A DNA stretch of 64,000 bases, from NCBI GenBank assembly GCA_026025075.1, contig JAPEUI010000018.1:62001-126000 (forward strand), in the 5' to 3' direction. Shown here one piece after another: positions 7,798 to 64,000 of the stretch. The notes beneath the pieces were generated by a model. The model was not told the DNA's origin and did no database searches. It worked only from the letters and a program-made list of their open reading frames with translations. The stretch comes from Vezdaea acicularis. Lineage: Eukaryota. Both the position numbers and the translations under genes were made by a program. The stretch's first letter is position 1. Each line of letters starts with the position of its first letter.

Positions 7798-8572
7798 TGT
7801 ACAGAAAGTCAGCTGTAGAAGGAGAGTTTTTCGTTCTGTTTATATGTATCTGTGGTTGGAGTTTGTGAGATTGGCCTGGGATCGGGACTATGGAGGCATG
7901 GGCGCAAAGAATATTGGCAAGGACGTGTACCATCTCAGCATGTGCTCAAGACCAGGTGTTGCATAACAATTGATAAAAATTCATAATCAAACAATTCCGC
8001 CGTCCAATAGCGGGCTTGCCAAGGATTTCGATGCTAGTCCCTCCATGAGAGCTACTCTTCTAGAACCTGTCTGAGCTATTGCTTTTACTTCAATCTACTG
8101 ACTGGGTGAGAAGCTGAGAGATTTGGTAAGGAGTGTTTTGAGCGAACGTGAAAGCAGCAGTCGAATAACGGGAAGTTGCGAATCACGTTGCCGCTAGAGG
8201 CATCCGCCGGCGAAAAGATCATGAGCGTGACCTTTGTCCCTCGCAACTCGCTTCCACCATGGACCCTCCGGTGTGATCGTTAAGCGAAGGCAGCCAGTTG
8301 CGTATGCTCGTCTCTAAGGTCTCCGCATCGTCACTCCACTCCCACCCAACACACCCTCGACAGCTCCTTCACGAGCCTCAACACTCGACATCGATAATTC
8401 GATAAAACGAGAGTCTACTCATCTCATCTAGACTCTTCGCCAACAGACCCACTCCACATTCGATCCACTCTCTTTCAGGACCTTCACTGCAACAAACGCA
8501 GGAGTGGAGGCTAGCTTACCGACCGACCTTCTGCCTGTCGTCACCTCATACGTTGCACGAATACGTCTGATC

Positions 8573-12131: not shown

Positions 12132-12842
12132 TCAATGCTCGAACCAGTCATCCTCCCAAGGCGGCGCAAGCCTCCAAAACGCAGCTTCTAGTTCTTCGTT
12201 GTGCCGTAGGCTCATTATCACTGGCGACTCAGGCCTACGTAGCGCGGCTTCCACTTCCTCGTTGTGCCGTCGGCTCGTTATCGCCGGCAACTCAAACTCA
12301 GGGGCGGGCTGTGCGGTGGGAACAACGGAGCCCTCCCGGTAGCGTGATGGTTGGTATGGTGCTACTGGTGGTGGGCGTTGTGGTGGTGGTGGTGGTGGTC
12401 GTTGTTGTTCCATTGGCCGGGGCGCTGCCTGGTTCTGGTACGGATTGGCGGATGGTCGGGCTGGAGCAGCAGGGTCAACGAAAGAAGCTGGCTCTCCCCC
12501 ATAATTTGGATGAGGCGGCGCAGCGAAGTAGTTGGTGGTGCTGGCCCCCGGGAAAATGGGCTCTCTCCCGTAGTATGGGAGAGGAGGTGGGGCGGCGTGG
12601 TAGGTGGGGTATGGTCCGCCGCCTGCTGCAGCAGAGCCAGGAAACATCCCCTGGTGATAGTAGAGGGGCATGGGGTCAAAGAAAACGTGGACAGAGTCGA
12701 AAGAAGGTGCGGAAAAAACAGGCACTCCCCCATAGGTTGACGGAGGGGGCGCAATGACAGGGTAAGAGGAGGGGTCACGGGCTGGGACGGCGACTGGACG
12801 AGGACCGGTCGACTGCGCCGTGTTGCGCTGCTTCTGCATCAT
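12132..12842 (-). CDS. Proline-rich orphan protein (start uncertain)
   Basis: Long P/Y/A-rich ORF. An internal 63-bp duplication keeps the motif RHNEE.EAA, which suggests coding constraint. Confidence 0.4.
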   Translation of the reverse strand: MMQKQRNTAQSTGPRPVAVPARDPSSYPVIAPPPSTYGGVPVFSAPSFDSVHVFFDPMPLYYHQGMFPGSAAAGGGPYPTYHAAPPPLPYYGREPIFPGASTTNYFAAPPHPNYGGEPASFVDPAAPARPSANPYQNQAAPRPMEQQRPPPPPPQRPPPVAPYQPSRYREGSVVPTAQPAPEFELPAITSRRHNEEVEAALRRPESPVIMSLRHNEELEAAFWRLAPPWEDDWFEH

Positions 12843-13496
12843 CTTGTCATTAACGAACTTTAGAGAACGCCAAAGCACGTTAATATAACGAAACGCTGCG
12901 TATATAACGTGTTCGTGTTAGGCTTTCCGGGAAGAACAGCAGGAATCTTCAAAGACTTTCAGAAATAATAACGGCAAATCCACCCTGAAGTGGGAGCTAA
13001 GTTACGCATAGTAGGAGGTGAGACGAACGAGGTATGAAAGCGAAAATTTGGGGTGGCGGAAGGAGGGCTTTGCAGGGTAAAGCCCTGATTTCTTCCGCCT
13101 AGCTTCATCCACTTCAGGTACCCCAGTGAGTTTTCCAGACATTTCGCTAGAACGCTTATCATATCTGAGGTATAATAAAGAGTCTGGGTATCTTTGGCTC
13201 TACCACTGGAACAATGCACTCATAATTCTGAGAGGCTACAAGCAATGGCTTATATGCATACGACAAGACAATAGGGGAAATGGCTTAAGGACAAAAAGAA
13301 GAATGCTCTTCTGGAGGAGGTTAATGAGTTGCGGATAAGCTTTGACAATTAAGAAGAGTATCCAAACATAAACATTTTATAGAAAGTAATCAAACAAAGG
13401 GAAAGTATTGGTTCTAGCGTCCCTGAGGGAGCTGCTAGTCGCAATATCTGTTTGCAGCACGAGAAAGAAGGTCTCAAAAGGGTCATGTTAAGTCAT

Positions 13497-25296: not shown

Positions 25297-25934
25297 GGGC
25301 GGATCAACAACAAGCGAATCGCGTGACCTGGATCTGTGCAGGCGAGACGATCGCAAAGCTACAGCGCTAGGAATCAGACCGCCTGAAACTGGACAAAACT
25401 ATTACGGACTCATCCATTGGACCAGGGAAGGAGTAGCCAATGCGTTCCTCACAATGTGGAGAGATTTTTGCACACGACCTTTGAGAGCACTTGGGACGGT
25501 CTATGTCTGGCTGAAGACAAGGACTGAAGGGCACATCGCAGAGAGTACCTCAGGCATCGAATATAAGACCTCGCTCTCATCATTGCGTTTATCGTAAGGC
25601 AATACTTTTTCCCACGCGGGGTAATTATGCCTAAACGAATGCCTGAACGGCCGGTAGACCCTGGTTCTGGACCCTTTGGTGCCCCGTTTCAGCCTCGCTC
25701 GAGGGCTCGGCTGTAGCCCCGACCTCTGATATCAGCGTACGCATTTACTGTACTGTACTTGTACATATGCAAGGTGAAAGACTGTGGCAATGTGTAGGCG
25801 CCCAGCCTCAGCCACCAGCCATCAAGCTGGAAGCCAGCCTGATTCAAAATAGCTGAAAAGGCTGAAGCACCCATCCAAAATCCGATCATACGTCTTATTT
25901 CGCTTTTCGTCGGATGCTCTGTTCCATCACTAGT

Positions 25935-27746
25935 ATGGCGGAAGTTGTCGGTATCGCTGCTAGTGCAGTCACACTTGCGGCATTGTTCAGTAAATGCATC
26001 GACTGCTTCTCTTACTTTAAGGCGGCGCAAAACTGCTCCGCTGAAGCTGAAATGTTACTAGTGAAGCTTGACTGCGAGAAGGCCAGGCTGCTTGTCTGGG
26101 CGAATACTGTGGGCATCCTGCATACGGATGACCAGGGGCGATATCCACAGTTGGCCGATTCAGAACAGGAAATGCTGATTCGACGCTGTATTGATCAGAT
26201 CATTAGCCTCCTGACAGATGCCCAGACACTCCAGGCTGATTATGGGGGCTATCCAACGAATCAACAGGAAACCCAGCGTTCTGTCGCAGTGGTAAGCGTC
26301 AACAGCATGAACATATTCATGATAACAAAACGGGGATTCTTTGCTCGCGCTGGTGGACTTAATCAAGCGCCAAGCTGGTTAACTCGAATCAAATGGGCAA
26401 TTCGTGATGGAGCCAAATTTCGAATCCTTCTTGCACACCTGAAGGACTTTGTGGACGACATCATCATGCTTGTGCCAGTACCTCCAGAGGTCATCAATAA
26501 CACAGTTGAAGAGGATATCACAAGAATCATTGACATTAGTACTCTTCGACTTGCTGAGAGCGCTTGCGAGGAAAGCTATCCAAGCTGGTCGACGCGAGCA
26601 AGCGAGGTCATTAAAGAAAGCGAACTTGGAACTCTGGATCCCCGCGATCTTGAAGAGATAAGTGAGGACATGAATCAGCCTGAGATCGCCCAAAATGGAT
26701 CTGGGTTGAATGCAGGCCAAGATCTTCATTGTAAGCCAATAATTTGAAAATTGTCGACGAAGACTAATCTGCGCTAAGGGGGGTGGCCGCTCTCGCCAAA
26801 GATTTTCCTCGTTCTCACCGATAAATGTCTAGATCTTGAGGCCGATGGTCATTGCGAATCCGCTAGAATAGGTGACTCAATATCTCGAAGGACAGATATC
26901 TCGTTTGCCTGTCCACACACAGCCCGCTGGAATCTTGGCCGCCGCGTTTTGGCTAATGTCAAGATGCCATTCGAGTCGTCGGAAGAGATGAGCAAGATTG
27001 AAACCATGAGATTTGAAACTTCAAAACATACCGGTGAATTACCAGAAGTCCGCCCAGTCAGCAGGATATATATTCATTGTGGTCCATGTGCTTGCGCTAT
27101 CGAGACAGCACTGGAATTCACTCTCAATAATGATATGTCAGAGTACTTTGACCTCTCAATCCGCATTGATGAACGACTGGAAACAAGCTGTCGTCGGAGC
27201 AGCACCATAATTAACGTTCTTGCTGCATTACGCGATGTCACAGCTAGCCATGAGGTCAAACACTGGGACTACAAATCAAGATCTCTTGGTTGCATTGATT
27301 GTCCAGAGCTTGAGAAACAGATATATGACCTTGAGCAGGAACGGTCTGGACATCGCGAACCAACAACTGTCCTGCAAAGAATTTTGCATGACCATTATAA
27401 AGTTAACGAAAGCAGTCTCACAATTGGAGCAGTTGTCATCATCGGTGAAGCTAACCTTTGTCACCTCTCACTAGAAAGCCGGCCATTTCATGCTGAAGCC
27501 AGGAAGCCACAGGAAACAGATATTTACTCTATCAAATCTCTTTATACACATACTGGGTGGATATGGCGGAGGGAATATGCTGGATCTTATAGTAGAAGCA
27601 AAAACGCAATCGAGAAAAAGAGAGCCGAGTCAAGTTTAATCACACACCGGGCTTCTCCGTCAACGTTTGGCGTAACAGCTACGACGCCAACGACTCCGCG
27701 CACTAAAAGGCCCCGATCAGAATCCACTGCAGAAACAACTAGCTAG
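25935..27746 (+). CDS. HeLo (HET-s/LopB prion-inhibition) domain protein with unknown C-terminal domain; intron 26731-26778, ~587 aa
   Basis: MAEVVGIAASAVTLAALFSKCIDCF...LLVKLDCEKARLLVWANTVG and RIKWAIRD are HeLo hallmarks. The GTAAGC...CTAAT...AAG intron joins in frame to the 26949 ORF. Confidence 0.85.
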
Positions 27747-36767: not shown

Positions 36768-39629
36768 ATGGCAGCCAAAGTCGATCCTATCGATGATCTC
36801 CGCGCCAGCATCCTCGACACCCGCCAGATAAACTATGTCAATCTGCCGTTCGTGCCGCAGGACGATTTATATCGCCTCCTATCCCCACCGGTGGTTCTCT
36901 CGGTGCTGAAGAGCAGTGGCTTGGATACTAGCCGGCTCAGCGAACTTGCCCAGAGCGTTCACCAAGGTGCCCGTAAGGTATTTGCGATTCTGGTCATCTT
37001 AAAGCAGGTCCAGCACACCCCTGACCTCGTCAGCTGGGATCATTTTCGGGATCTCGATCCCCAGCTGCCGTTCGAGCGGGATGCCCTTGAGCGCATGCTC
37101 CCTCGGGCGTTCGTCGCGACGGAATTCTATGACCAGCAGTGGCAATTCCTGGCGCCAGTCTTCTCAAAAAAGCTACTGCCACGCGAGCTCGTGAAGCGGA
37201 TCCCCCTACCGATCACTGAGAAAATCAAGGTTGGTAGCGGTAGCTTCGGGACAGCTTACCGGATTCGCATCCATCCTTCCCACAACGGCTTCGGCACGAG
37301 CGTCGACGAGAGCGTATGGCTTCCTTCTAGCTAGACATGGACGGTGCTCACGCGGAAATAGTTTGTCCTGAAGAGCTTCAGCGTAGGTGACGAATCACGC
37401 GACGACTACATAAGTGAGGCGAATAATCTATCCATTCTGAGCCATCTACGGCACCCCTACATCATCGAGCTACTTGGCGCATTCACCCACGACAATGAGC
37501 ACCATCTGATATTCCCTTGGGCGCCAGGCGGCGATCTCGCCGCGCTGTTGCGGGGTCCGGCGCCCGAGTTTCAACGCCGCGAGGACTGGCTCGTTGCTCT
37601 ATGCCGCCTCGCCTCGGCCATCGAGCGAGTGCACAACGTCACGGCGGAATCGCTGCTAGACCTCCCCCTCATTGGGTGCCACCACGACCTGAAGCCACGG
37701 AACATCCTAGTCAAGGGTACGACTCTGATGCTGGCTGACTTTGGTCTCTCCAGGTTCCGGGATGCCTCCGAGCCATCCGCGACGCGCCACCGGATCGGCC
37801 AAGGCGACTACCTGGCGCCAGAATGCGAAGATATCGAGAACAGCTTCGCCAAAGGCACCATCGGCCGTTCGAGCGACATTTGGTCCTTTGGTTGCATTAC
37901 CGCGGAGATCCTCACCTATATGCTCAAGGGCCCAGATGGCGTCAAGGACTTCCGCAATCAGCGGCGATACCGGGTGCCTAACTATCTGTTCTTTCACTTC
38001 CACCATGGCCCGCTGACGCCTAGCCAGGGCGTGGCCGGCTGGCTCTCACAGCTGGAGAGCGAGCCGCAGGTAGTGCCGATGCTCCTACCGCTGATCCGAC
38101 AGATGCTATCGGTGGAGCCCACGCAGCGTCCCAAGGCTAAGGAGGTCCAGGCACGCCTCCAGTTCATCGCCATACGCTTGATCGCGGAGGATATCGCCCA
38201 AAAGTATGCGATGGCCTGCGAGCGGAGCGGCTCAACATTCGCCTGGATCGAACGATGCAAGTTTGAAAGCTGGAGGCACGCCTGTGGGACCGCGCGCGCT
38301 GCCGAGACGCCCAATACGACGCCGGCTGAGGGATTCGACCACAACTTCCAGGCCGCCTTAGATATCCTCTATCATGTCCGAGAGCATTTAGAGTCCATTG
38401 AATCGGCGGATTGCTGGCGGCGGGAACGAGCCTTCTTCCCACTTCGATACTTTAATAAGGATCTCGCTGAACTGCTTCCCTACACTGCGCAGAAGGAGAT
38501 GGAAGGTAAGCTAGAGAGTTGCCTCTTAAACACCCTTGACACGGAGCGTTTGAGGGATATCGGACAGGCCCTACACACCCAGATGCCGGGGAAACGACCT
38601 GTGCGACTGGCGAAAATCAAGCGGATGACCCTCCTTGTGGAGCAGCATGGTCACCGGACGCAATCGAGCCTGGAGATTGACCCAGGCAGGGTCCGGCCCG
38701 GTGGGTCCGCTGGGGAGTCCGTCGAACTTCAAGCCAGCAAGATCATGGTGATGGACGGGATGCCTGTCCTCGTCGAATGGGTACAGCACGAGTCGCATGT
38801 AGAAGAGGAAATTGGCCGTGAGCGCCTTCTTCACATTGATGCTCTTGCAACCCTGCTTAGCCTGAAGGATAAACCCGAAGAGTTCCGCGTTCTCCACTGC
38901 TCCGCATACTTTCATGATCCCAAAAGATCTCGATCCGGGATAGTATTTGAACTCCCAGCCCCGTCCGTGGTCGGCGAACCACTAAAGCCACTGACGCTCG
39001 CCAAAGCACTTGCGCCACTCACCGAAGGTAAAGAACGTAAAAAACGGCCGGCGCTTGGAGACAAGTTCAAACTGGCCAGCGCTCTCGCCAATTCGATTGC
39101 CGAGCTCCATAAGGTGGGTTGGCTGCACAAAAATATCTCGTCCTCGACTATAATTTTCTTCCCGCCGTTTGGATCCTCTCCCAGGAAGCATATAACGAGA
39201 CCTTACATCATCGGCTTCAGCCATAGCCGACCGGCGTTTGGAATTACTCAAGCGTCCTATGATATTAAGTGGAGGGACTATCAACATCCCGAGTATCTTC
39301 AAAACAAGTCACAATTTACCTCAAAATTCGACTATTATAGTCTTGGCATGGTGTTGCTCGAGATTGGTTATTGGGAACCACTTCAGCAGATCACACATGA
39401 TTGGAACTGCCCGAATGAAATGCTTCGCGATCGGCTTCTAAAAGAAAAAGTGCCACGGTTGAAAGAAAAGATGGGTGAGATCTACTTCGAGGCAGTGAAT
39501 ATGTGCTTGAGCAGTAAGTTCACAGCTAGAGGAAAGAGTGAAGATGAAGTTGAAGTTGATAATGCTACGGCGGTACATCTTGAGTATGAAGAGCTTGTCG
39601 TGGCGCAGCTTGCAAAGTGTTCAGCCTGA
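36768..39629 (+). CDS. Tandem protein kinase + kinase-like (pseudokinase) protein, intron 37314-37361, ~937 aa
   Basis: Domain 1: GSGSFG, FVLK, HHDLKPRNIL, DFG, YLAPE, DIWSFG. Domain 2: LHKNISSSTII, IIGFSHSR, YQHPEY, DYYSLGMVLLEIG (catalytic Asp and DFG absent). Confidence 0.88.
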
Positions 39630-39696
39630 CTATAGCACAATTATGCTAGAATGTTTTAACTATAAAGTCGGAGTCTTGGCAATCCAAAGTTTATTT

Positions 39697-39964
39697 GAGG
39701 TTGCAGTCAAAATTGATGGCGCATACGCGATGGTTCCCTCACAAAATGCTACAGGCTCGAAGGCACAGAACACCCCCATAAGGCCACGGACATGGCTCAG
39801 AGCATGATACTGCAAAGATACAAAGGCGAAATACTCTAGAGCTCATACCAAGAACAATTACTATGAGATCGTCGGCAATCTCTGAGCTGCTGAGAGTAAT
39901 GTACGATGATGGGTAGACATGCCCACTGCTCGCTTATGCGCCATCGATTTTGACCGCAACCCTC
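39697..39964 (+). repeat. ~270-bp inverted-repeat-bounded element, copy C
   Basis: GAGGTTGCAGTCAAAATTGATGGCGCATA ... TATGCGCCATCGATTTTGACCGCAACCCTC. Confidence 0.88.
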
Positions 39965-40789
39965 GATTGTCCGATAATCAGGCAGCATGATGATTGATTA
40001 TCCAACAATCGAGTTCTGGAATATGATGTCTGAAAACCTTGATTTTGATACAGTTGTGGCGGGAAAAGAAGGTGGTCCGCCTCGGAGGCTTGCTAATAAT
40101 TGAATGTTGGACTTCCTAGTAATTGATTGGGTCGGTACTCAGTTCTTGCTCGGCTTCATGGAAGGAGGATAATAATTCAGATGGGCTAGACTATGTTGTA
40201 AGGCTACAAGCGCCTCCATAAATCGCACTTCAATATCTTCAATGATTGCTGTGCAAGCAGTAGACGTATCATTATAGGTGCACTAACGATAAGCGGATGC
40301 AGAACATATTAAACGATCAAGTTGAGCTTGAAAATAAACCATGACTGGAAAAATAACTGGGTAATTAGCTCTCTTTCCATTTGATACTTATCTACGCTAT
40401 TTGCTCCTGAACCCTGATTACCAGGCAGGAGCCAGGCCAACAAGGTTGTACAGCAGCAAGAGGTCTTTAAAGCCGCCTGCTGGTTCTTAGCTCAGCGCTC
40501 GTAACAACAATGTGATGGTAGGGCGTCTAAGGGATGAATGCAGGCGTGAAAGCCACATAAGGCATCAACGGATCGGGCGACGATATATGTGCATAGGTCG
40601 GGCGTACGTTTGTCATGCAGCCCAACTGATAGGTACGGGGCGCAGTGACTTGGATTTCAGCCGTGTCCTCTGCACACGTTGCTCGTGTCCCCACATCTCT
40701 TCTCAAAGCTTTACCTTTTGAAAATAAATATTCCATATTTTGATATATCAGTGACAGTCATATATCCTCTCACGCTCATCACGATAATT

Positions 40790-43700
40790 ATGGCTGTCGT
40801 TACACCCATGGGTGTCTCGATATCTCAAACACGCTGGTCATTCGATGAGCGATGGAGCTCCTCCTCCTACAGCTCTGGCATGGCTGAATCTATACATTCC
40901 GAGCGGTATGACTTCATTACGTTTTTAGAAGTATGTCAGAACCTAGAGATCGATTTCCTTCCGATTACATGGCAACCGGCTCTTGATCATCTTGGGATAG
41001 GCGCGCAGAGTGAGGTGCGTCAGTCACTGGTGAATCTAGCTCTAAGCTTTGCCTTCAACCGCGTGAATGTTTCTACGAGCCTCTCGCGAGAGAAGGAAAA
41101 CCAGATATACCAAGCTCTGATATCTCAGGTTTCGATCTTGGCAAACTCCAAGATTCAGAGTCATCTAAACATCAATCATCTCATTGGTGTATGCTGGGAT
41201 ATCATACCAGAAGAGAATAATCAGAATCAAGAATACATTCATCCCCGAAGAGACGGTTTACCTCGTGACGAAATCGAAATATGGCAGAACATTTCGTCTT
41301 GCAAGTGGAGGGTCTGGCCTGCGTTGGTGTTCGAAAAATCTAAGCATGGAGATCTAAACTGCTTCATGAGGTCAGCCTCTGGATTGAACCTAGATATTGT
41401 GGGGAGACTTAAGCTTTGTGCGGATATTGCCTGCGGAGTCCAAATTCTGCATGAGAATCGTAAGTAAAAACAGTATCAACTCGTATAGGCATCGAACTAA
41501 GCTTGTGAATAGGTGTCATACATGGGGATGTGAAGCCCCATAACGTGCTTATCTTTGAGGAAAGATCTGGGGAATATACCGCAAAACTAGCTGATCTGGG
41601 CCATTCTGTTGCTTTCAGTACTGATGATGACGATGCATTGATGATATGTACTGAGCCCTGGCAGGCTCCGGAACATAGCTACCGAATGAAGCGTGGACTA
41701 TCTTTTATGATCCGCATGGAAGTCTACACCTTGGGCATGGTATGCTTATGGCTTCTATTTCATGAACGGCTGTTTGAGCTGGGTATTACCTTCGATCACC
41801 AGGGTATGGGCCGTCTGAATGCGTTAAAGAAGGGGCATGGTATATCTGAGGTCGCCCAGAACTTGACGCGGGAAGCGCAAGGCCTATCAGCTGATCAAAT
41901 CCTGGGCTTAATCGGATTCTTTAGTTCATGCTTAACGCCTAATCATGCAGACCGAGGCTCTGATATGGACCCTTTACTGCAGCTTCTTGGAGGTAGCTTT
42001 ATTGCACCAAAGCCCTCGGTGCCTGCTGCAATAACCATAAGAAAACCAAGCAGTGAGCCTCACGAAACTTTCAAAGTAAGATCGAATTTGATTTAAACAG
42101 CATGTTTTTAACCAAACTAGTACAGATTTCGAAATCCGTCAGAGATTTTTATAGAAGTGATTATCGCCTCCGCATCTATATTACGTCTTGTCTAAGAGAG
42201 AGATTATCCCATACTGCAAAAAATGACCCCAGCAACAATCTACGATCTGAGAAAGCAGCATTCCAGCTTGCTTTATGCTTCCGGTTAGGTTTTGGAGTTA
42301 CCCCAGATGATAAAAAAGTACAAGATTTGTTGCAACGGAGCGGGAGGCCGATACAAGAGCTCAATCTGGAAATAAAATCAATCAAGCAAGGAGGCATCAG
42401 GGGACGGAACGAATACTACGCAAGTCTTTCCAATAAAGGCTTTGATGCGACAATAATTGATGCAACATATTATCAAGGAAGTAGTTTGTTGGATGAAGCT
42501 ATTGTAGAGCTGCTAGCAGACGTGTATAATCTGAATCAAGCGTTTCCGGATTCAGTATATATTATAAAGATTCTGGAATCCATATTAGGCCATCTTCTGA
42601 GTTTCCAAGGACGCTGGACAGAGGCAGAGAGACTGCGGGTGCAGGTGATGGAGACAATAAAAAGAGTGCTTGGAGAAGAGCATCCTTCCACGCTGACTAG
42701 TATGGGTAATCTGGCATCAACTTACAGTAACCAAGGACGCTGGACGGAGGCGGAGAGACTGCAGGTGCAGGTGATGGAGACAAGCAAAAGAGTGCTTGGA
42801 GAAGAGCATCCTTCCACGCTGACTAGTATGGGTAATCTGGCATCAACTTACAGTAACCAAGGACGCTGGACGGAGGCGGAGAGACTGCAGGTGCAGGAGA
42901 TGGAGACAAGCAAGAGGGTGCTTGGAGAAGAGCATCCTTCCACGCTGACTACTATGGGCAATCTGGCATCTATCTACCATGATCAAGGACGTTGGACAGA
43001 GGCAGAGAGACTGGAGGTGCAGGTGATGGAGATAAGTAAAAGAGTGCTTGGAGAAGAGCATCCTTCCACGCTGACTAGTATGGGTAATCTGGCATCAACT
43101 TACAGTAACCAAGGACGCTGGACGGAGGCGGAGAGACTGCAGGCGCAGGAGATGGAGACAAGAAAAAGAGTGTTTGGAGAAGAGCATCCTTCCACGCTGA
43201 CTAGTGTGGTTAATCTGGCGTCAATCTACCGGAATCAAGGACGTTGGACAGAGGCAGAGAGACTTCAGGTGCAGATGATGGAGACAAGAAAAAGAGTGCT
43301 TGGAGAAGAGCATCCAGACACGCTGACTAGTATGGGTAATCTGGCATCAACTTACAGTAACCAAGGACGCTGGACGGAGGCAGAGAGACTGCAGGTGCAG
43401 GTGATGGAGACAAGCAAGAGGGTGCTTGGAGAAGAGCATCCAGACACGCTGACTAGTGTGGTTAATCTGGCATCAATCTACCGGAATCAAGGACGTTGGA
43501 CAGAGGCAGAGAGACTGCAGGTGCAGGTGATGGAGACAAGAAAAAGAGTGCTTGGAGAAGAGCATCCTTCCACGCTGACTAGTATGGGTAATCTAGCATT
43601 TATTTACTATGATCAAGGACGCTGGACAGAGGCAGAGAGACTGCAGGTGCAGGTGATGGAGACAAGCAAGAGGGTGCTTGGAGAAGAGCATCCTTCCACG

Positions 43701-45665
43701 CTGACTAGTATGGGTAATCTGGCATCAACTTACAGTAACCAAGGACGCTGGACGGAGGCGGAGAGACTGCAGGTGCAGGAGATGGAGACAAGCAGGAGAG
43801 TGCTTGGAGAAGAGCATCCTTTCACGCTGATTAGTGTGGTTAATCTGGCGTCAATCTACCGGAATCAAGGACGTTGGATAGAGGCAGAGCGATTGCAGGT
43901 GCAGGAGATAGAGACAAGCAAGAGAGTGCTTGGAGAAGAGCATCCTTCCACGCTGACTAGTATGGGTAATCTGGCATCAACTTACAGTAACCAAGGACGC
44001 TGGATAGAGGCAGAGAGACTGCATGTGCAGGTGATGGAGATAAGTAAAAGAGTGCTTGGAGAAGAGCATCCAGACACGCTGACTACTATGGGTAATCTAG
44101 CATCAACTTACGGTAACCAAGGACGCTGGACAGAGGCAGAGAGACTGGAGGTGCAGGTGATGGAGGCAAGAAGGAGAGTGCTTGGGGAAGAGCATCCAGA
44201 CACGCTGACTACTATGGGTAATCTGGCATCAACTTACCGGAAACAAGGACACTGGACAGAGGCAGAGAGATTGCGGGTGCAGGAGATGGAGACAAGCAAG
44301 AGGGTGCTTGGAGAAGAGCATCCTTCCACGCTGACTAGTATGGGCAATCTGGCATCTATCTACCATGATCAAGGACGTTGGACAGAGGCAGAGAGACTGC
44401 AGGTGCAGGTGATGGAGACAAGAAAAAGAGTGCTTGGAGAAGAGCATCCTTCCACGCTGACTAGTATGGGTAATCTAGCATCTATTTACTATGATCAAGG
44501 ACGCTGGACAGAGGCAGAGAGACTGCAGGTGCAGGTGATGGAGACAAGCAAGAGGGTATTTGAAGAAGAGCATCCTTCCACGCTGACTAGTATGGGTAAT
44601 CTGGCATCTATCTACCAAAATCAAGGACGCTGGACAGAGGCAGAGAGACTGCAGGTGCAGGAGATAGAGACAAGCAGGAGAGTGCTTGGAGAAGAGCATC
44701 CTTCCACGCTGATTAGTGTGGTTAATCTGGCGTCAATCTACCGGAATCAAGGACGTTGGATAGAGGCAGAGCGATTGCAGGTGCAGGAGATAGAGACAAG
44801 CAAGAGAGTGCTTGGAGAAGAGCATCCTTCCACGCTGACTAGTATGGGTAATCTGGCATCAACTTACAGTAACCAAGGACGCTGGATAGAGGCAGAGAGA
44901 CTGCATGTGCAGGTGATGGAGATAAGTAAAAGAGTGCTTGGAGAAGAGCATCCAGACACGCTGACTACTATGGGTAATCTAGCATCAACTTACGGTAACC
45001 AAGGACGCTGGACAGAGGCAGAGAGACTGGAGGTGCAGGTGATGGAGGCAAGAAGGAGAGTGCTTGGAGAAGAGCATCCTTCCACGCTGACTAGTATGGG
45101 TAATCTGGCATCAACTTACCGGAAACAAGGACGCTGGACAGAGGCAGAGAGATTGCGGGTACAGGAGATGGAGACAAGCAAGAGGGTGCTTGGAGAAGAG
45201 CATCCTTCCACGCTGACTAGTATGGGCAATCTGGCATCTATCTACCATGATCAAGGACGTTGGACAGAGGCAGAGAGACTGGAGGTGCAGGTGATGGAGA
45301 TAAGTAAAAGAGTGCTTGGAGAAGAGCATCCAGACACGCTGACTACTATGGGTAATCTGGCATCAACTTACAGTAAACAAGGATGTTGGATAGAGGCAGA
45401 GCGATTGGAGGTGCAGGTGATAGAGACAAGCAAGAGAGTGCTTGGAGAAGAGCATCCACGCACGCTGATCAGCATAAACAATCTTGCTCATACTTATGCA
45501 AATCAGGGCCGTCTCGAGGAAGCTATTACTACAATGAAGACTGTTGTCCAGCAATTTACGGCTACTATTGGCGCAGATCATCCGCACACGCTAGTTTCTG
45601 TTCAGGCTCTCAATGCCTGGTCTAACAACCGACGGCTCGAGCAAACGGACGATCCCACCGACTAG
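40790..45665 (+). CDS. Kinase-like domain fused to highly conserved 42-aa TPR repeats; introns 41460-41512 and 42076-42125, ~1590 aa
   Basis: In-frame splicing gives LGIGAQSEV, VIHGDVKPHNVL, ADLG, PWQAPE, a linker, then the QGRWTEAERLQVQVMETSKRVLGEEHPSTLTSMGNLASTYSN repeats. Confidence 0.85.
42606..45503 (+). repeat. Coding tandem repeat, 23 units of 126 bp (TPR), followed by one degenerate unit
   Basis: CAAGGACGCTGG-like starts recur every 126 bp from 42606 to the degenerate unit at 45504 (2898 bp / 126 = 23). Confidence 0.95.
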
Positions 45666-49830: not shown

Positions 49831-52305
49831 ATGGCCAGCTTGACTGCAGACAATCCGGCCGCTCAGGCTCAAAACAGCAATGTCATCTTCCCCTTGCCTC
49901 GGCCAACCAGGGGGCCAAAGGCATACCGCCTTGAGATTGATGAGTTTCTTGCTGACAATGCGTTGACCAACCTGTTCCTATTGGCTCTTTCCGACATGCA
50001 GAAAAATAGCATCAAGCATGCCGGGAGCGATAAATTGAATTGGTGGAGCTTTTACAGTATTTCAGGTATTACGAACTCAACTCCTTGAATAGGGATGATG
50101 CTCACCATGTCTAGCTATCCATGGCCTTCCCAGGGAAGATTGGGCTGAGCTGGGCTATCCAAATCAGGAGACATATGGATACTGTCATCATGGCATGAAC
50201 ACCTTTCCAACTTGGCATCGTCCCTACATGTTTCAGATGGAGGTAAGTGGGGGACGTTGTCTATCAGCCAACGCGCTCTTGGCTAATATTCTCTTAATAG
50301 CAAGCCATTTACAATCAGATGATCAAGAAGGCCAATGAATATGATGACGATCACAAAAAAACCTATCTTGATGCGGCCGCCCGGTTCAGACTACCGTACT
50401 GGGACCTTGCTATGCCTAGGAATGACGACGATAGCAAAGCGACTGAAAAGGCCAAAAAGCTCGGTGTTTGGCGATGGGGTCTTCCAGAGATCCTCAAACG
50501 CACAGAGGTCTACGTGAGAAGGCCCGACAAGCCAGACGAGCTCCACCCAATGGATAATCCATTGTATAGCTTCAACTTCCCGAAGGAAGAAGAGTATGCT
50601 GGTGTCAAGAACAGGCCTCAAATTCCATGGAAACAGACTGGAATCGGATGGCGCTTTGGTGACGACAAGAAACCGATATTTCGTGATGACAACAGCGTAC
50701 AATTCAAACATACCGTACGCGGTCCTACCACAAGGACTAAGGCAGACACTGATGAAGTGTACCTGGACGAAGCTGTCCAGCTCCAGACACGAGCATTGAC
50801 GACGTATGTCTGGCAGATGCTGAATCCTGAGGAGGAGCTTGATGTATCGGGGACTGGCGCAAAGATCAAGGTCAACGAATGGCGGCCATGGAACTATTTT
50901 GCAAACCATACACGAGTGCCAGAAGACACCGCATGGAAAATTCGAGCAATCAGATCGATCGAGTCATGGCACGACAACATCCACAATTTGATCGGCACTG
51001 GTAAGAACTATACCGGCCACATGGGCGATCCATCCATCGCCGCTTTCGACCCGTTATTCTGGCTCCATCATAACAATATCGAACGACTGTTTTGTCTTTA
51101 CCAGGTTCTGTATCCTGACAAGTTCGTTTCACCCGGCAAGCGTCAGGACCAAAACCCGCCTGTGCCGCGGAATGACCCTAATTGGTTTGCCGATGATGAG
51201 CTGTATCCCTTCACCAAAGACAGCAAAACGAAGAAATGCTACACCTCAACCGACGTTCAAGAATGGACGAAGAGTGGGTTTGCCGTCCCTGGCGACCAGG
51301 ATCTTGGTGAGGTTGGTCAGAAGGCAGTAGCGCAGTACTTGCGAGACACGTATTACTGGTGAGTCCAACCCGGCTTGGAGGCTCTCTCCTATATCTAATT
51401 AGCTGCCAGGGCCACCGATCCCAAGAAACTACCCCCCCCAACTCTTCAATACCCCAAGAATCTCAAGCACGTCGAAGCCCTTACTGGTAAGATTGAAGAG
51501 ACTGTCGAGGCTCCCGCATTGCAAGTGCAGGCGATCTCGATTCAGGCTGGCGCACCACAACTGGTCGCTCGCACGATTACTGTAGAGACTGGGACAAAGG
51601 AAAAGGAGCACATTCAGAATCCGACGATCGTCGAGAACATAATCAAGAATGGGGAACAGGACTACCCCAAAGGCGCATTGATAGACATCAACAAAGACGT
51701 GGACACCAAGATGAACACTTGGAACGCTCACCTCGAGGTCAAAAAGTGAGTACAAGACATCTTGCATAGTACCCTTCCCCATTAACCACCCCGCCAGGTA
51801 CGCCTACGACGGCTCCTTCAACGTCCACTTCTTCATCGGCGACATCGAGAGCGCCAACCCCGAGAAATACATGACTCGTCTGAACGAAGCCGGCTTCTCC
51901 GGCATCTTCGCCCAATCGCAACGCTCCGAATGCACCAGCTGCGAGAAAAACCGCGACCGGGGCGTCCTCTACGAAGACGTCGTCCCCCTCACCAACATCC
52001 TCCTCGACTACCTCGACGACGCCCAAGGCAGCGAAGACCTCATCTCTGGCGCCGGCAAAACTACTATCCGCAACCTCAGCGCCGAAGAGGTCGTTCCCTT
52101 CCTCAAGCAGAATCTTAGATGGCGCATCACCGATACGAATTCTAGTCTGCTCCCTTATCTGCCAGAGTCCGGCTTGGAGATCAAGGTCGCTAGTCGTATC
52201 TTCGTCCCGCCCACGGGCGATAATTTGCTCGGTACGTACGGGCCGTCGACGCTGCACCCGGAGATCACTACGGGCAAAGATGGCGGCTACAGCGGACCTG
52301 CGTAG
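49831..52305 (+). CDS. Fungal tyrosinase (type-3 copper) with C-terminal shielding domain, ~5 exons
   Basis: CuA: IHGLP, GYCHHG, TFPTWHRPY. RLPYWD. CuB: ESWHDNIHN, FDPLFWLHHNN. C-terminal domain GSFNVHFFIG...CTSC. Confidence 0.9.
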
Positions 52306-57624: not shown

Positions 57625-58575
57625 CTACCATCCAATGTAAGAGTCGACGGTCAGCTTGTTTAGAGCACGGTCATATTCCAGTTCAGGCATATACTTGTCG
57701 CCGCCCAATATCGATATCGCTTGGTACCACCAGGAGTCTCTGCCGAACCTCATTGCCGTCGTAAAGTCCCAATAGTCAGGACACCACCCAGCACACTCCC
57801 AGTCAAGAAACCCAGAAAGGTGGTAATCTTCGTCAACAAGGATATTATGGGCTTTCAGATCGCCGTGTGTAAAGACAATATGGTGTTCTATATCTATGAT
57901 CTTTCTCGCCTTAGTCAATGTTGTTTCATATTCTTCTAAAGATTTGAAGCTGTGAGACGAGGCAGCACTTAGAAGATAGTCGTGAAGCTCCCTTTCGACT
58001 TTGAAAGGGCCCATAGCGTGCCTGGGAACTCTCTGGGTTGATATGTATGTCCCTGAAGCTGAACAGATCTGCTTGTCTTTAAAAGGACTCTTCCATTGCC
58101 GCATAGCATGTACGCACTTTACAAGGTCGTCGAACCACGGTTGCTCTTCCTCCACTACGAATTGAGCACTTGGATTACTCAGCGACCAGCCTGGCAGTCG
58201 CGTCATCAAGATTGATATCGGCTCGAACGAGTCGGATGGATGTTCTCCATAGCAGAGGACCTTTGGCACTGGCATCCCCGCGGCACGGGCCATCTGCATA
58301 GCAACAGCTTCTTCAATTCGAACTCGATCTCCCCACTTGAGAATAAGACCAAAGGGTAACTCCATGATAGGCCGAGTGAATGGAATGTTGAACCAGGAAC
58401 AGTATGATTTTGACAACCGGGCAAGCAGTTTATGGAATAGTCCCCAGAGCCGACGAATTGTCGGGTTTGAAATAGAAGGAGTTGGCGGAGTTTCCGTCAT
58501 GATATTGGCTTGGATGGGCCGAGGCCAGGTATAATCAGGTCGTAAAATACGAGGTATCCATGACTTCCCCATCAT
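57625..58575 (-). CDS. Aminoglycoside phosphotransferase/choline kinase-like protein
   Basis: EEAVAMQM, PVPKV, FTHGDLKAHNILV, LDWECAGWCPDYW. Confidence 0.88.
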   Translation of the reverse strand: MMGKSWIPRILRPDYTWPRPIQANIMTETPPTPSISNPTIRRLWGLFHKLLARLSKSYCSWFNIPFTRPIMELPFGLILKWGDRVRIEEAVAMQMARAAGMPVPKVLCYGEHPSDSFEPISILMTRLPGWSLSNPSAQFVVEEEQPWFDDLVKCVHAMRQWKSPFKDKQICSASGTYISTQRVPRHAMGPFKVERELHDYLLSAASSHSFKSLEEYETTLTKARKIIDIEHHIVFTHGDLKAHNILVDEDYHLSGFLDWECAGWCPDYWDFTTAMRFGRDSWWYQAISILGGDKYMPELEYDRALNKLTVDSYIGW

Positions 58576-59611
58576 TGGGTAATGTGTTTGGTGGTGATTG
58601 AACAGTGTTTGGGTTGATGATCAGCGGTGCTTGAGCATTGCTTAAGTTCGAGGGGTCACCTGTGACAGGACATTGCTTTAGTAGAGGGCTACTTGAGATC
58701 GAGTGGTGCTTGAGTAAAAGGCTAGCGATTATTAAACGGTGCCTAAATTAACGGCCGGTGGTGGTTCGAATAATCTTGAGTTGAATAATCGGCAAGCGTG
58801 ACAGCTAAATCTATCCAAGACAGTAGCGTGTAACACCACCCTTTACAACCAAAATTTGCATATAGTCTATTTGGCAATGATAGGAATTTCTTGTGTATGA
58901 ATTACATGATTTAGCAGGTGTATCATCATGATAATAAGTATCAACCTCATCTTCAATTGCGAGCGCTTCAACGTGCTATTCGCCCATTTGCGCTGCCGCG
59001 TTTTTCTTCCACGGCTCGCGCCTGAGCGAATGCGTGCTGCTTATCGACCGCAACATGACAGCAGCGAGACATGCTTCTTATCCATCATCTCTGCTCTAGA
59101 ACAGAATTCCCCCTAAGCTACTTACGATCGCTAGCTTAAGCTACTGCTTGCTGTCGTGCCGCCCCCCCGCCAACCGTGCCACGAGCACAGCGAGTCAACC
59201 AAACTTACCCATAGAGAGCTTACTATGCTTAAATGTGCTTGAGATGATTTGAGCATATAGAAAAGTGAATTCTTTGATACATTCAACAAGCTAATGGCTC
59301 GTTGAGTGTGGGCAGCCCTTGCTTCTGAGGATGGCTTTATCGGAGATCAGAGTATTAATGTCCTAGCAAACTCCCCTCCTCCAGCGTAAGCCACGAGGTC
59401 TGTAGAGTGATTTTACTTTACCAATGGCATAAAAACGAGGTATTTATCCTCAGGCAATAATACAACCACTGAATAATGTTACACTTATAGTCTAAGTCAA
59501 GCAACTCCTTGTGTGCCCCGCCTCCACTAAAGCGGCAAATAGTTTCGTACCCACAAAGCCCAAAAAATCCCCCGTTAGATCGCATCAACCCAAATAATTA
59601 CTCAAGTCAAG

Positions 59612-61442: not shown

Positions 61443-63496
61443 TACGCTGTGTGGGTTTTTTTGTCAACCGCCGTGGGGGGGACAGCTGTCAAAGCGTAGG
61501 CGGTGACACCCGCTGTGCATCTGTTCGGATAAATCTGATCCCTGGTAGTAATTTGCGGGGTCATGAGCGGAAGCGTGACTCGGGAGCGGGGAAGCCTGAC
61601 CCAACTTATCAACCAGGCAACAGTTGTTTGCCTCTTGCATCCTCACCTATTCCGACTGGTATGCCAATTTCAGCTTTCGATCCTTCTCGTCCTAATTCTC
61701 GATGCATGGGATCCATGCATCGATGAGCACTTGATGGACCAACATCCAGCCATTTGACGGTAGATATCTTCCACTCTGCCGCTCGGTCATTCTGACACCC
61801 GACATATGGAGTCGGAAAATACGCTGCTCTTCTTTCTTTTTGGCCAGTGTACTGCACTGGTGGCGCTCAGCATAGCGTTTTCTCCTGTTCCAGATACTTT
61901 CACCACATATTAGTGTTGAACCGAGTTTGATAGCGGAATATCATTTCGGGAAGCGGCTCACTGATCCCTGTGGAAGAGAAAAGACAAGAGCAATGGTGAT
62001 TATCGACCAACGCGCAGTGACCCAATCATCGCACAGGACATTTGTGCCTATCCGTGGCAAAGATACAAAGTGAAGGATGAGACAACTATGACTTCTAGTG
62101 ACGTACATCGGCACGCAAAGGGAGCGTCGAGCCCACTTGACACAGATTTGAGGGGATCACAGAACGTGTTATCATGACTGGGTGGTAAATTCTGCCGCAC
62201 ATAGCAAGGTTCTTTCCCTGCATTGAAAGTGATGCAGAGGCGGCCGTTGCGATCATAGTAGCCTTGGAAATAAGGACACAACCAGCCCCTGGCCCAGCGT
62301 AGTAAAGGGATCACACGACCCGCTATCCTGCAGATCCATAATGGTAGTGGGTCGAGGCATGGACCAATGATGCAAGTGGAGAAACACTGTGTGGGAAGCT
62401 CGAGGATACTGGATTGAAAATACCTGCAACTACTGGTCATTGACCCAAGGCCTTAAGACTCTAATGCATACAGCTAACCCGCGCGCATGGAAATGGCCTA
62501 CCCATTGTCAAGATCTACTTTCCTATCAACTACCTGTCAGCGAGGTATACAAAGGAAACTCTCAACCACGTCACTGGTAGTCCAAGTCTTCTTGCATCAT
62601 AATACCGCCATGAGCAAGGAGGTGAAAGACGAGATCCTTACCTTTTCCACATGTTACCTTGGTGGTGGTCATTTTTTGCCGAGACTCTCCGTTATGGAGT
62701 CTTTTCGCTAACCGGCAAGCCGGTATATCCACAGCTCCATCGACATCCTGTTGAGGTGCGATCGTCCCGACGATCTTCCTAAACTTATCCATGACTATGA
62801 AATGATCAAGAGAATTTGGTGGGTAGTCGACTAAATCGATGGAGCCGAAGAAGTGTTCACCCTTAGGACGTGACGCCTCTTCCGCATTGCACCTGCTTCC
62901 AAGGCAGCAAGGCAGGCTTTCCATTAGAGACAGATTCACGACAGGCTCGATGAGATTGCTTCCCCTGCTTGAAAGCTGGAATGAGAGCCGTTGGACGTCA
63001 TAAGTGGCTTTCATTGTACGCCACCTCGGTCCTATTTCAGCTATACCTGCAGGGCTAAGTTTCTGGGGCATGCACAAAATTCTCTGACAAGGGCTTCTCC
63101 GGAGGGGCAAACTTCAGCAAGGAGATCCCCCTAGTAGTGAAGGATTGATCGACACGCCAGAGGCTTTGTTGATTGATGCGTGCTTTCTGTTTCTTCTTCC
63201 GCGGCCTCACGGCTCTGTCAATATCAATATGGCTAAAGAGTATAGTGGTGGGAAGAGGGGTTTGGAGACCACATTTACTTACCGGAAGAGGATAGGGATC
63301 GTCATTCTTGGGAATCTTACATTACGTTGTGATCATTACAACCCTGCCAACGATGAAGATATTGGCGCCGGATTGGATCCAAAGCCTCCGACAGACGGAA
63401 GGCAGGGTTGGCGACCCAAGCTTTGGCCACGCAAAGAGGGAATCATGGGCGGAGCTCGCAGGATCTCCGAGACAGATGGTCCAAGGCTCAGAAATC

Positions 63497-63502
63497 TATA
63501 AA
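63497..63502 (+). promoter_or_regulatory. Candidate TATA box of the hydrophobin gene
   Basis: TATAAA, then a CT-rich box and a CAA-rich leader, ~145 bp before the ATG at 63644. Confidence 0.55.
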
Positions 63503-63643
63503 GACGCCCTTCTTTCTCTCCAATTCAGTCCTCTTTCACAACAAGAACAAGCAATAGCAACAGCAACAGCAACAGCACTCAATACAACCAAAGACAATCA
63601 AACCTCTCTCTTTCTTCAAAGAACCAATCTTACAGCCTTAAAG

Positions 63644-63917
63644 ATGCATTTCTCTACCATCACCGTCATCGTATCCATGGCCCTCCTTGCCAGCGCCGGG
63701 CCCCTCGCTCCCCGCAACAGCGGTCCATCGCCGCCAAAAACCCCCCCAGGCACCGTGTACAATAACCAATGTGCCAACTATGGCCAGGCCCAGTGCTGCA
63801 ACAGCTACGATACTACCGTCATCTCACAGATTGGGGCGGCCGGCATCCTTGATATTCTCTCCGGCGGCTTGGCCCTCCTCAACGGCGTCGGTCTATTTAA
63901 AAATTGCTCGCCCTTGA
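63644..63917 (+). CDS. Class I hydrophobin, exon 1 (gene runs off the window end)
   Basis: Signal peptide MHFSTITVIVSMALLASAG, then C-x7-CC-long hydrophobic loop-C (QCANYGQAQCCNS...KNCSPL), then a GTCAGT donor at 63918. Not in the ORF track. Confidence 0.85.
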
Positions 63918-64000
63918 GTCAGTTTCCCTTTACTCCACTCCCTTTTCACCTTCTCTCCATTTGGCCAGCCGGCCTTCCACAAAAACACTCACATATTTAT

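Follow-up and report, generated by a model that had tools for sequence, protein, structure and literature searches.

Work on fungal innate immunity has centred on NOD-like receptors (NLRs), partly since the surveys of these proteins start from the nucleotide-binding oligomerisation domain (NOD), which acts as a nucleotide-dependent oligomerisation switch. In a fungal NLR, a central NOD of the NACHT or NB-ARC type with its Walker A/B motifs is preceded by an N-terminal domain of the effector repertoire and followed by C-terminal superstructure-forming repeats. Fungal NB-ARC-TPR and NACHT-TPR proteins, i.e., Podospora Pa_2_10340 and the 42-residue-repeat protein of the PDB entries 4Y6C/4Y6W, carry tetratricopeptide repeat (TPR) units of the TPR_10 type, which are 42 amino acids long and highly identical to each other. 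Here we describe a gene with the same type of unit and a similarly high identity between the units, found in a stretch of 64,000 nucleotides from Vezdaea acicularis (GenBank assembly GCA_026025075.1, contig JAPEUI010000018.1, positions 62,001 to 126,000 of the forward strand), which is called the window below and to which the coordinates refer. The predicted product of this gene (40790-45665) joins a protein kinase domain through a helical linker to the TPR array, and it is without a NOD and so without the switch. The gene content of the window is fungal: it encodes Zn(2)Cys6 domains, domains of fungal-specific transcription factors and a HeLo domain, besides further genes typical of fungi.

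Several properties of described systems are important for the comparison. In Dyrka 2014 (PMC4986451), PF13374 (TPR_10) is used as the TPR signature, PKinase stands in the table of the domains that fungal NLRs have at the N-terminus, the polymorphic positions of the TPRs in NLRs are placed on the concave side, and high internal conservation is defined as an identity above 85% across 100 amino acids or more. A second study (PMC13449251) uses a Psim of at least 0.7 for the same property. According to that study, high internal conservation is found in 5.59% of the repeat proteins that lack an ATPase and in 22.04% of those that have one, highly conserved NLRs occur in a genomic setting with transposon remnants and NLRs, and repeats move between NLR genes. 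Fungal S8 or CHAT proteases fused directly to WD40, TPR or ANK repeats without a NOD control gasdermins, as reported in PMC12881547. The statements on directly fused domains in Kaur et al. 2020 concern bacterial systems.

The V. acicularis protein resembles the sensor half of a fungal NLR, but is not an NLR; it is a member of a Pkinase-linker-TPR family. As in the protease-repeat fusions of the fungal cell-death clusters, an effector or signalling domain is joined to repeats without a NOD, and neither such a fusion nor high internal conservation outside ATPase proteins is new alone. The protease-repeat systems combine a protease with a gasdermin, whereas the V. acicularis gene has a kinase fold and a tandem-kinase neighbour. 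Special to this copy are the long homogenised array, a lineage-specific putative pseudokinase and the recurrent partner gene. We consider it probable that the locus encodes a cytosolic protein of 1590 amino acids with a Ser/Thr-kinase domain, a conserved helical linker and a TPR solenoid of the kinesin light chain (KLC) type with a homogenised, sensor-like array, in which the kinase domain would be a pseudokinase and the neighbouring kinase its partner.

Gene structure and domain organization

From the ATG at 40790, removal of two introns gave a coding sequence of 4773 nt (1590 codons and a stop codon) without any internal stop (Table 1). The three exons come from plus-strand frames that run from stop to stop at 40649-41467, 41509-42096 and 42057-45665, and exon 1 includes a family-specific N-terminal segment (YDFITFL...LPITWQ). 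Homologues span both junctions. The alignment with P0001, a hypothetical protein of the lichen-forming Trapelia coarctata with 52% identity over 100% of exon 1, is unbroken at junction 1, where LHENR followed by VIHGDVKPHN is aligned with LHKNRVVHRDIKPHN. Junction 2 (residues 411/412) is crossed by contiguous BLAST alignments with at least eight kinase-TPR relatives (query residues 360-566), and the family consensus F-x-I....S...LY..DYR.R straddles it, with the Ile as the first codon of exon 3. The initial annotation had joined the kinase to the TPR array in a spliced reading frame, and this model is borne out by the open frame of 1590 residues and by the homologues; the kinase and the array are predicted to lie in one gene from which two introns are removed.

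If intron 2 is retained, the frame stops after six more codons and the product is a kinase only, so that a kinase-only isoform is conceivable. A stand-alone kinase form was also considered from four database models of 403-501 amino acids that contain the kinase only (P0001-P0004). This was rejected, because all four models terminate within a few residues past the conserved intron-2 position, which is the pattern expected of a missed intron and not of real stops. They are probably models cut short by the missed intron rather than true kinase-only proteins.

In the protein, the kinase domain (approximately residues 60-385) is followed by the helical linker of about 181 amino acids (residues 386-566), close to the length of about 200 first estimated, and by the TPR array from residue 567. 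The Pfam matches are Pkinase for exon 2 (E 2.6e-10), PK_Tyr_Ser-Thr for the end of exon 1, which is weak and under the curated cut-off (E 1.2e-4), and TPR_10 (E 0, in 24 stretches) and TPR_12 (E 3e-270) for exon 3. NCBIfam, applied to three N-terminal pieces, gave bacterial kinase models alone, all of them sub-threshold. By the Pkinase match the N-terminal domain is, irrespective of the kinase clade, of a type in the effector repertoire of fungal NLRs, and by TPR_10 the C-terminus has the superstructure-forming repeats of these receptors.

The linker region

The protein has no central NACHT/NB-ARC NOD with Walker A/B motifs as found in fungal NLRs. Neither the protein nor any of the six frames of 39630-45665 has a Walker A motif, be it strict (G....GK[ST]) or relaxed, and NACHT, NB-ARC and other P-loop families gave no Pfam match at E<=1 in any exon. 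On this point the earlier reading of the sequence, which reported neither a P-loop nor a NACHT/NB-ARC domain, was correct.

The sole Pfam match of the linker was TPR_7 (E 0.064). AlphaFold models of exon 3 residues 1-365 (mean predicted local distance difference test score, pLDDT, 90.2) and of the linker alone (pLDDT 83.0), each with 18 relatives, consisted of helices only and had no strand. Both the P-loop NTPase core and the winged-helix module require strands, and the models therefore argue against a NOD in the linker. The last two linker helices form a degenerate capping TPR hairpin before the array. The PDB sequence search of exon 3 gave matches from residue 139 on, which is the TPR part. 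The linker alone, searched with E up to 10, matched five unrelated chains and no chain of an NLR or another signal transduction ATPase with numerous domains (STAND), and the Foldseek search of the linker model against PDB gave no match at E<=1e-3. In the VIA exhaustive structure search of the linker model, TPR/Sel1/HAT-type hairpin proteins topped the listing with a best Z of 7.7, a level that is not decisive for helical repeats according to the calibration, and no NLR helical or winged-helix module was among the best 50 matches. The profile, sequence and structure searches and the two all-helical models agree that the linker is not a recognisable degenerate NOD. The most that can be said from the models is that the linker seems to resemble a degenerate solenoid extension, not a NOD relic.

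The kinase-linker-TPR family

Exon 2 was used in a HMMER search of 1.84 billion representatives, which yielded 866 matches at E<=1e-3. The relatives described here were taken from 150 listed matches of the 866, and most are single-exon fragments of 180-200 amino acids. All 22 proteins of at least 506 amino acids among the matches listed, called the long relatives, were scanned in Pfam. Both Pkinase and TPR_10/TPR_12 were found in 20 of them; one of the other two is a TPR part cut N-terminally, and one is a kinase only. None of the 22 had a NACHT or NB-ARC match. Ankyrin repeats were also present in two long relatives, and a second kinase in two. P0146 and P0149 have ankyrin repeats besides the TPRs, and P0149 also has a second, N-terminal kinase; the family, as judged from these domain predictions, combines several repeat types and extra kinases.

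The exon 2 sequence is 55% identical to P0005, and the kinase domain shows 28-41% identity to the long family members (19 proteins). In one ESM Atlas cluster of 59 members, mostly Ascomycota, Pkinase and TPR_12 are each present in 100% and TPR_10 in 98%; another cluster of 52 members, eukaryotic and mostly Ascomycota, has Pkinase in 100% and TPR_10 in 90%. The taxonomy of the relatives is taken from these Atlas summaries and from one named match (Trapelia coarctata). Pkinase-linker-TPR_10/12 proteins such as P0027, P0041, P0067 and P0123 have the same domain order as the V. acicularis protein and no NOD. The family and the V. acicularis copy have in common the kinase motifs LPITWQ, WPVLVFEKS, IHGD[IV]KPxN and PWxAPE, the linker motifs DYRxR and AFQLAxC..GFG, and the 42-residue TPR type. 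The database entries of the family are uncharacterised and are named 'protein kinase domain-containing protein' or 'serine/threonine protein kinase'.

The linker is conserved in the family. In a BLAST search against 153 fetched proteins, residues 360-566 matched 19 relatives beyond the kinase tail with E values from 4e-21 to 7.5e-6, and the alignments contain invariant L23, C51 and G55 within the AFQLAxC..GFG motif. When the linker (residues 1-165 of exon 3) was compared through a word index with proteins of 648-2064 amino acids, there were 533 candidates and none at E<=1e-3, which reflects the sensitivity limit of that search, as BLAST against the relatives showed the conservation. The word-index search with exon 2 among longer proteins gave one match.

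A metagenome scan yielded 12 loci (numbered with the prefix L) with full-length matches to exon 2. In nine of the 12, the N-terminal and C-terminal parts of the kinase, the linker and the TPRs were found in this order on one strand; one locus lacked the N-lobe match only, and two were cut by contig ends. A tblastn match to the linker was obtained in 10 of the 12, and in all 10 loci having both, the gap between the C-terminal kinase part and the linker was 162-267 nt, which leaves no room for a NOD. These results indicate that the NOD-less layout is the ancestral state of a sizeable ascomycete family and not peculiar to the V. acicularis gene. The initial annotation had presented the gene as an exceptional NLR minus its NOD; this cannot be maintained, as the layout is standard in an ascomycete family with its own conserved linker and no recent NOD loss is indicated. 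It had also proposed a survey of kinase-TPR architectures, and the survey made here recovered the architecture, which is thus not a one-off.

Two of the metagenome loci have notable neighbours. A NACHT-like (NPHP3_N)-winged-helix-ankyrin NLR gene adjoins the kinase-TPR gene in L002 (2794-5796, plus strand), and a copia gag remnant adjoins it in L005 (2408-3520).

Literature searches, with the supplementary tables of Dyrka 2014 and PMC13449251 outside their scope, gave no description of the kinase-TPR family, of homogenised members or of a pairing of the family with DUF7580 kinases. No paper mentioning DUF7580 was found, and the sole paper matching TPR_10, Pkinase and fungi lists domain counts in Emmonsia.

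Catalytic residues of the kinase domain

The family consensus has a G-loop GxGGT, AFK with the beta3 Lys, LxxE with the alphaC Glu, IHGDIKPxN, DFG and PWxAPE. The V. acicularis kinase differs from this consensus in having the G-loop GIGAQS (residue 69), FAFN with Asn90 in place of the beta3 Lys, LISQ with Gln113 in place of the alphaC Glu, and DLG (251-253). HGDVKPHN (227-234) and APE (275-277) are present, and Asp229, Asn234 and Asp251 are kept. Of 21 aligned relatives, 20 have the beta3 Lys and 19 the alphaC Glu, and both residues are present in 11 of 11 metagenome loci; the combination of Asn and Gln was otherwise found only in the Trapelia relative P0001. The V. acicularis copy thus has Asn/Gln/DLG where the family has the canonical Lys/Glu/DFG, a difference within the family that does not exclude the copy from it.

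The mark of a pseudokinase was taken to be the loss of one or more of three residues, the beta3 Lys, the Asp of the catalytic loop and the Asp of DFG; here the Lys is changed to Asn. Since both partners of the Lys-Glu salt bridge are lost in one lineage, productive ATP binding is argued to be lost as well, and the V. acicularis domain is probably a pseudokinase. With beta3 Lys, alphaC Glu and DFG replaced by Asn, Gln and DLG, the term 'receptor kinase', used initially, is doubtful for this copy. L002, L009 and L011 have fairly uniform arrays together with canonical kinase residues, and the loss of catalytic residues is therefore not tied to homogenisation.

The TPR array

The array was first described as 23 near-identical units of 42 amino acids. 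This count holds for the near-identical units, to which one degenerate terminal unit at the end and the degenerate capping hairpin ahead of the array must be added. Tandem Repeats Finder (TRF) detected a single array at 42606-45468 with a period of 126, 22.7 copies, 87% matches and 0% indels, and anchoring on the EHP motif gave 24 units exactly 42 amino acids apart. The mean pairwise identity of the 23 units is 87.5% at the nucleotide level and 81.9% at the amino acid level (88% to the consensus), with 21 distinct unit sequences and at least 85% amino acid identity in 87 of 253 unit pairs; set beside the published criteria for high internal conservation, these values are an identity proxy and not a T-REKS Psim, and by this proxy the array would reach the looser threshold and parts of it the stricter one. 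A shift of seven units (882 nt) brings units 8-15 onto units 15-22 with a nucleotide identity of 91-100%, and two unit pairs match completely. This similarity may come from a very recent block duplication or, for that block, from an assembly effect. The comparison of the array with NLR-like arrays of high internal conservation, made in the initial annotation, is supported by the TPR_10 type and by the focusing of the variation on a few columns. Fungal NLR arrays share with the present array the more divergent terminal units, variation at a few helix positions and growth consistent with block duplication.

The repeat region was modelled as a helix-turn-helix solenoid with a 16-residue and a 19-residue helix per unit (pLDDT >90). 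With the exact spacing of 42 amino acids, this solenoid model and the PDB matches, the units are of the KLC type. The best PDB matches of the repeat region were KLC1/KLC2 and the Podospora 42-residue-repeat structures 4Y6C/4Y6W. The TPRs of KLC1/KLC2 gave the best match (E 2e-53; Foldseek E 1.4e-9 with a template-modelling score by target <=0.83), and the V. acicularis unit consensus is about 35% identical to the Podospora crystal construct. The concave groove of KLC binds peptide cargo, in accordance with the titles of the PDB entries. KLC differs from the V. acicularis protein in that its six TPRs are divergent, its N-terminus carries heptad repeats that serve the motor, and both a kinase domain and a homogenised array are missing.

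No array as homogenised as that of V. acicularis was found in 21 long database relatives among the matches listed. The maximum identity at the 42-amino-acid offset was 0.64 in P0041 and at most 0.48 in the other 20, and in contrast to the 23 homogenised units of V. acicularis, these relatives have 0-8 divergent units as detected by the anchor used. Homogenised arrays may assemble poorly and be under-represented in databases. TRF found 126-nt arrays in seven of the 12 metagenome loci, the nearest being those of L009 (7.2 + 6.5 copies, 85-88% matches) and of L004, which has 81% matches and is truncated where the contig ends. Homogenised arrays therefore recur in the family, and the V. acicularis array is the longest and one of the most uniform of those detected. 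In L009, a second array of 13 TPR_10 units (5753-7810, plus strand) lies 2 kb upstream of the kinase-TPR gene and is preceded by a 288-amino-acid open reading frame (ORF) without a Pfam match. In L011, an integrase-core ORF (12248-12982) divides the TPR array in two.

The consensus of the V. acicularis unit is about 83% identical (35/42) to the array consensus of L002 and L011, and a value of about 83% also applies to L003, L005 and L009; the kinase domains attached to these arrays show only about 30% identity. Measured against the V. acicularis consensus, individual units average 59-70% identity where the arrays of a locus are internally similar and have 26-56% where the repeats of a member are divergent, yet the kinase domains all stand at about the same distance (27-41% identity). 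Such similar units beside distant kinases could mean either that homogenised arrays are kept close to one ideal sequence or that cassettes move between genes.

Variation among the TPR units

Among the 42 columns of the unit, 16 are invariant, and the highest entropies were found in columns 4, 16, 5, 33, 2, 19, 22 and 23. The ratio of nonsynonymous to synonymous rates (dN/dS; Nei-Gojobori, all unit pairs) is 0.38 overall and 0.15 in 32 stable columns. In the ten variable columns it is about 1.0, a value that is circular as the columns were picked for their variation. In columns 16, 19, 22 and 33, the proportion of nonsynonymous differences (pN) is 0.23-0.45, and that of synonymous differences (pS) is 0-0.03.

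Helix A comprises columns 32-42 and 1-5 by the helix limits of the AlphaFold model. Its variable columns 33, 36, 37, 39, 1, 2, 4 and 5 lie on the same half of the helical wheel as the invariant Asn40, and the opposite half carries the invariant or conservatively varying hydrophobic residues Thr34, Leu35, Met38, Leu41, Ala42 and Tyr3. Columns 36, 39, 1, 4 and 5 are presumably the canonical TPR positions 2, 5, 9, 12 and 13 on the ligand-facing side of helix A. For the column entropies, a comparison with six further arrays, which come from five metagenome loci, gave Spearman coefficients of 0.52-0.71, using a V. acicularis set without unit 16 and with unit 24 instead, and in each of the six the ten columns of highest variability include 4 and 39. 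The unit data fit a constrained scaffold with a variable, predicted exposed surface.

Repeat-induced point mutation (RIP) was considered as a source of the unit variation and was rejected, as the indices of the array are similar to those of the rest of the gene. The array values are 0.79 for TpA/ApT and 1.49 for (CpA+TpG)/(ApC+GpT), and nine of the 25 C>T or G>A site changes of the array are in a CpA/TpG context.

The upstream tandem kinase gene

A gene for a tandem kinase-pseudokinase with Pkinase and DUF7580 ends 1.2 kb upstream of the kinase-TPR gene. Its N-terminal kinase looks active by its motifs (GSGSFG, VLK, HDLKPRN, DFG and APE), and the C-terminal DUF7580 is kinase-like with LHKN at the place of HRD. 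The gene belongs to Pkinase + DUF7580 clusters of 113 and 53 members in Ascomycota. P0123 (1911 amino acids) is colinear with both V. acicularis genes: its residues 1-932 are 36% identical to the upstream gene (E 8e-131), and the part from residue 933 to 1908 corresponds to the kinase-TPR gene.

In L004, L006 and L012, the kinase-TPR gene has a homologue of the tandem kinase, with both kinase halves, as its neighbour, each time in another orientation (Table 1). These are three of the 12 loci and three of the nine with at least 5 kb beyond the gene. Three occurrences in about 120 kb of flanking DNA are far above chance for a family of tens of genes, and this frequency suggests, by gene order, that the kinase-TPR gene and the tandem kinase form a two-gene kinase module.

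No cell-death executioner is adjacent to the V. acicularis gene, and a HeLo-domain gene is 10 kb off. This HeLo-domain ORF (25866-26747, plus strand, E 2.6e-41) is located about 10 kb upstream of the kinase pair, HeLo being a pore-forming cell-death domain, and it is followed by a 322-amino-acid ORF without a Pfam match (26778-27746, plus strand).

Table 1. Predicted features of the kinase-TPR locus (window coordinates) and tandem-kinase homologues beside related genes in metagenome loci (distance from the kinase-TPR gene)
Feature	Position or distance	Strand or orientation	Description
Exon 1	40790-41459	+	223 codons + 1 base; N-terminal segment, kinase N-lobe, start of C-lobe
Intron 1	41460-41512	+	53 nt, GTAAGT...CTAAG...TAG; divides the Arg codon before VIHGDVKPHN
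Exon 2	41513-42075	+	Catalytic loop, rest of C-lobe, start of linker
Intron 2	42076-42125	+	50 nt, GTAAGA...CAG
Exon 3	42126-45665	+	Most of linker, TPR array, stop codon
Linker, exon 3 part	42126-42590	+	Residues 412-566; modelled as all-helical, conserved; motifs DYRLR and AFQLALCFRLGFG
23 near-identical TPR_10 units	42591-45488	+	42 amino acids (126 nt) each
Degenerate 24th TPR unit, 16-amino-acid tail and stop	45489-45665	+	38% identity to consensus
Putative recent block duplication	43473-45362	+	Units 8-15 vs 15-22
Tandem kinase-pseudokinase gene	36768-39629	+	Exons 36768-37313 and 37362-39629, 48-nt intron; 937 amino acids, Pkinase + DUF7580
Tandem-kinase homologue in L006	gap of about 0.6-0.8 kb	same orientation	
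Tandem-kinase homologue in L004	about 3.3 kb	divergent	
Tandem-kinase homologue in L012	about 2.2 kb	convergent	

Discussion

In the explanation that we prefer, unequal crossing-over or gene conversion would keep the 23 + 1 units nearly identical, and the differences, mainly on the solvent-exposed helix A and one stripe of helix B, would provide a reshufflable binding surface like that of fungal NLR sensors. A protein or peptide ligand may bind in the TPR groove and change the conformation or the oligomeric state of the protein, and the signal would then pass via the (pseudo)kinase module. The pseudokinase could serve as a regulated scaffold, or as the substrate or partner of another kinase, for which the tandem kinase 1.2 kb upstream would be the likeliest candidate. 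We infer the ligand sensing, the pseudokinase behaviour, the partnership with the neighbour and any role in non-self recognition or cell death from the features described above.

This explanation can be extended, with low likelihood in our estimation, to a NOD-independent two-gene surveillance module of filamentous ascomycetes formed by the kinase-TPR protein and the tandem kinase-pseudokinase. The array would recognise foreign or modified-self proteins and the kinase and pseudokinase domains would relay the read-out, with the sensor's own kinase having degenerated and become dependent on the neighbour. Such a module would be functionally comparable to the plant tandem-kinase/pseudokinase-decoy receptors or to the RIPK-MLKL signalling of animals.

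The family uses TPR_10 repeats with a kinase but no NOD, and NOD-based surveys therefore overlook it. Should proteins of this kind sense ligands, fungi would have more diversifiable intracellular receptors than the NLR counts suggest, and the homogenised-repeat strategy would not depend on the STAND switch. The pairing with a tandem kinase and the loss of the Lys-Glu pair give concrete, testable signalling hypotheses, and the locus is a useful entry point to NOD-independent sensing in fungi.

Several observations weigh against the sensor explanation. The splicing and expression of the kinase-TPR gene are deduced from homology. Some kinases function without the canonical Lys, and the intact HGD, Asn234, DLG Asp and APE of the V. 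acicularis domain leave some room for activity. The entropy correlation among arrays is partly due to shared structural constraint, and diversifying selection is not demonstrated, because the unit pairs are paralogous and non-independent and the columns were chosen post hoc. The placement of the variable columns in the concave groove comes from helix periodicity in the model together with general knowledge of TPRs. As for the partnership, P0123 may be a model in which two neighbouring genes were merged instead of a true fusion, and the tandem-kinase neighbour is absent from six of the nine loci with at least 5 kb beyond the gene. Finally, with no homogenised array in the 21 long relatives, the V. 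acicularis array could be a neutral expansion or in part an assembly effect, the latter since two unit pairs are 100% identical.

The neutral expansion is part of the competing explanation that survives best, to which we assign a limited but appreciable likelihood: an ordinary signalling or scaffold kinase, the TPRs of which bind a fixed partner as KLC binds its cargo, with the array as a by-product of slippage or crossing-over. In most members of the family, the catalytic residues are canonical and the TPR units detected are divergent and number 3-8, a combination in keeping with a conserved role in the cell. The overall dN/dS of 0.38 between units is below 1, tandem 126-nt repeats are inherently unstable, and high internal conservation is found in the 5.59% of ATPase-less repeat proteins mentioned above (PMC13449251). 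On the other hand, the variation is located on the exposed helix-A columns and on a small number of columns of helix B in which pN greatly exceeds pS, and the 32 other columns are strongly constrained. The same columns vary in six other arrays, homogenised 126-nt arrays occur in seven of the 12 related loci, and related loci lie beside transposon remnants and an NLR, which is the setting described for highly conserved NLRs in PMC13449251. If the array is a neutral expansion, it is a clean example of concerted evolution, with a dated 882-nt block duplication in a non-NLR gene.

In comparison with the sensor explanation, it is very unlikely that the protein is a former NLR (Pkinase-NB-ARC-TPR) from which the NOD was recently deleted, with the linker as the NOD/ARC leftover. 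The enrichment of high internal conservation in NLRs, as given in PMC13449251, and the NACHT-like (NPHP3_N)-winged-helix-ankyrin gene next to the kinase-TPR gene in L002 are in favour of such an origin. However, the layout and the linker are common to relatives whose kinases are only 28-41% identical, so that any loss of a NOD would be ancient and family-wide and not of this gene. In addition, a NOD was found in none of the 22 long relatives among the matches listed, and the linker lacks strands, Walker motifs and any match to NB-ARC, NACHT or winged-helix domains, its weak structural matches being TPR/Sel1-type hairpins.

The least probable explanation is that the locus is not one functional gene and represents two transcripts (kinase-only and TPR-only), a decaying pseudogene or a mis-assembled array, as might be thought from the stop six codons into a retained intron 2, the kinase-only models P0001-P0004, the two 100% identical unit pairs, where assemblies can err, and a gene model drawn from sequence and homology, but against which stand the 4773 nt open over three exons with canonical short introns, the purifying selection on the structural repeat columns, the absence of a RIP signature, the colinear kinase-linker-TPR order in 20 of the 22 long proteins among the matches listed and in nine of the 12 loci, and the ends of P0001-P0004 that fit missed introns and not real stops.

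Additional features of the window

Three further genes were noted in the window. A tyrosinase-domain ORF is located at 50301-51362 (plus strand), and an APH/choline-kinase-like phosphotransferase gene at 57625-58620 (minus strand). A weak hydrophobin-like ORF is found at the edge of the window (63296-64000, plus strand).

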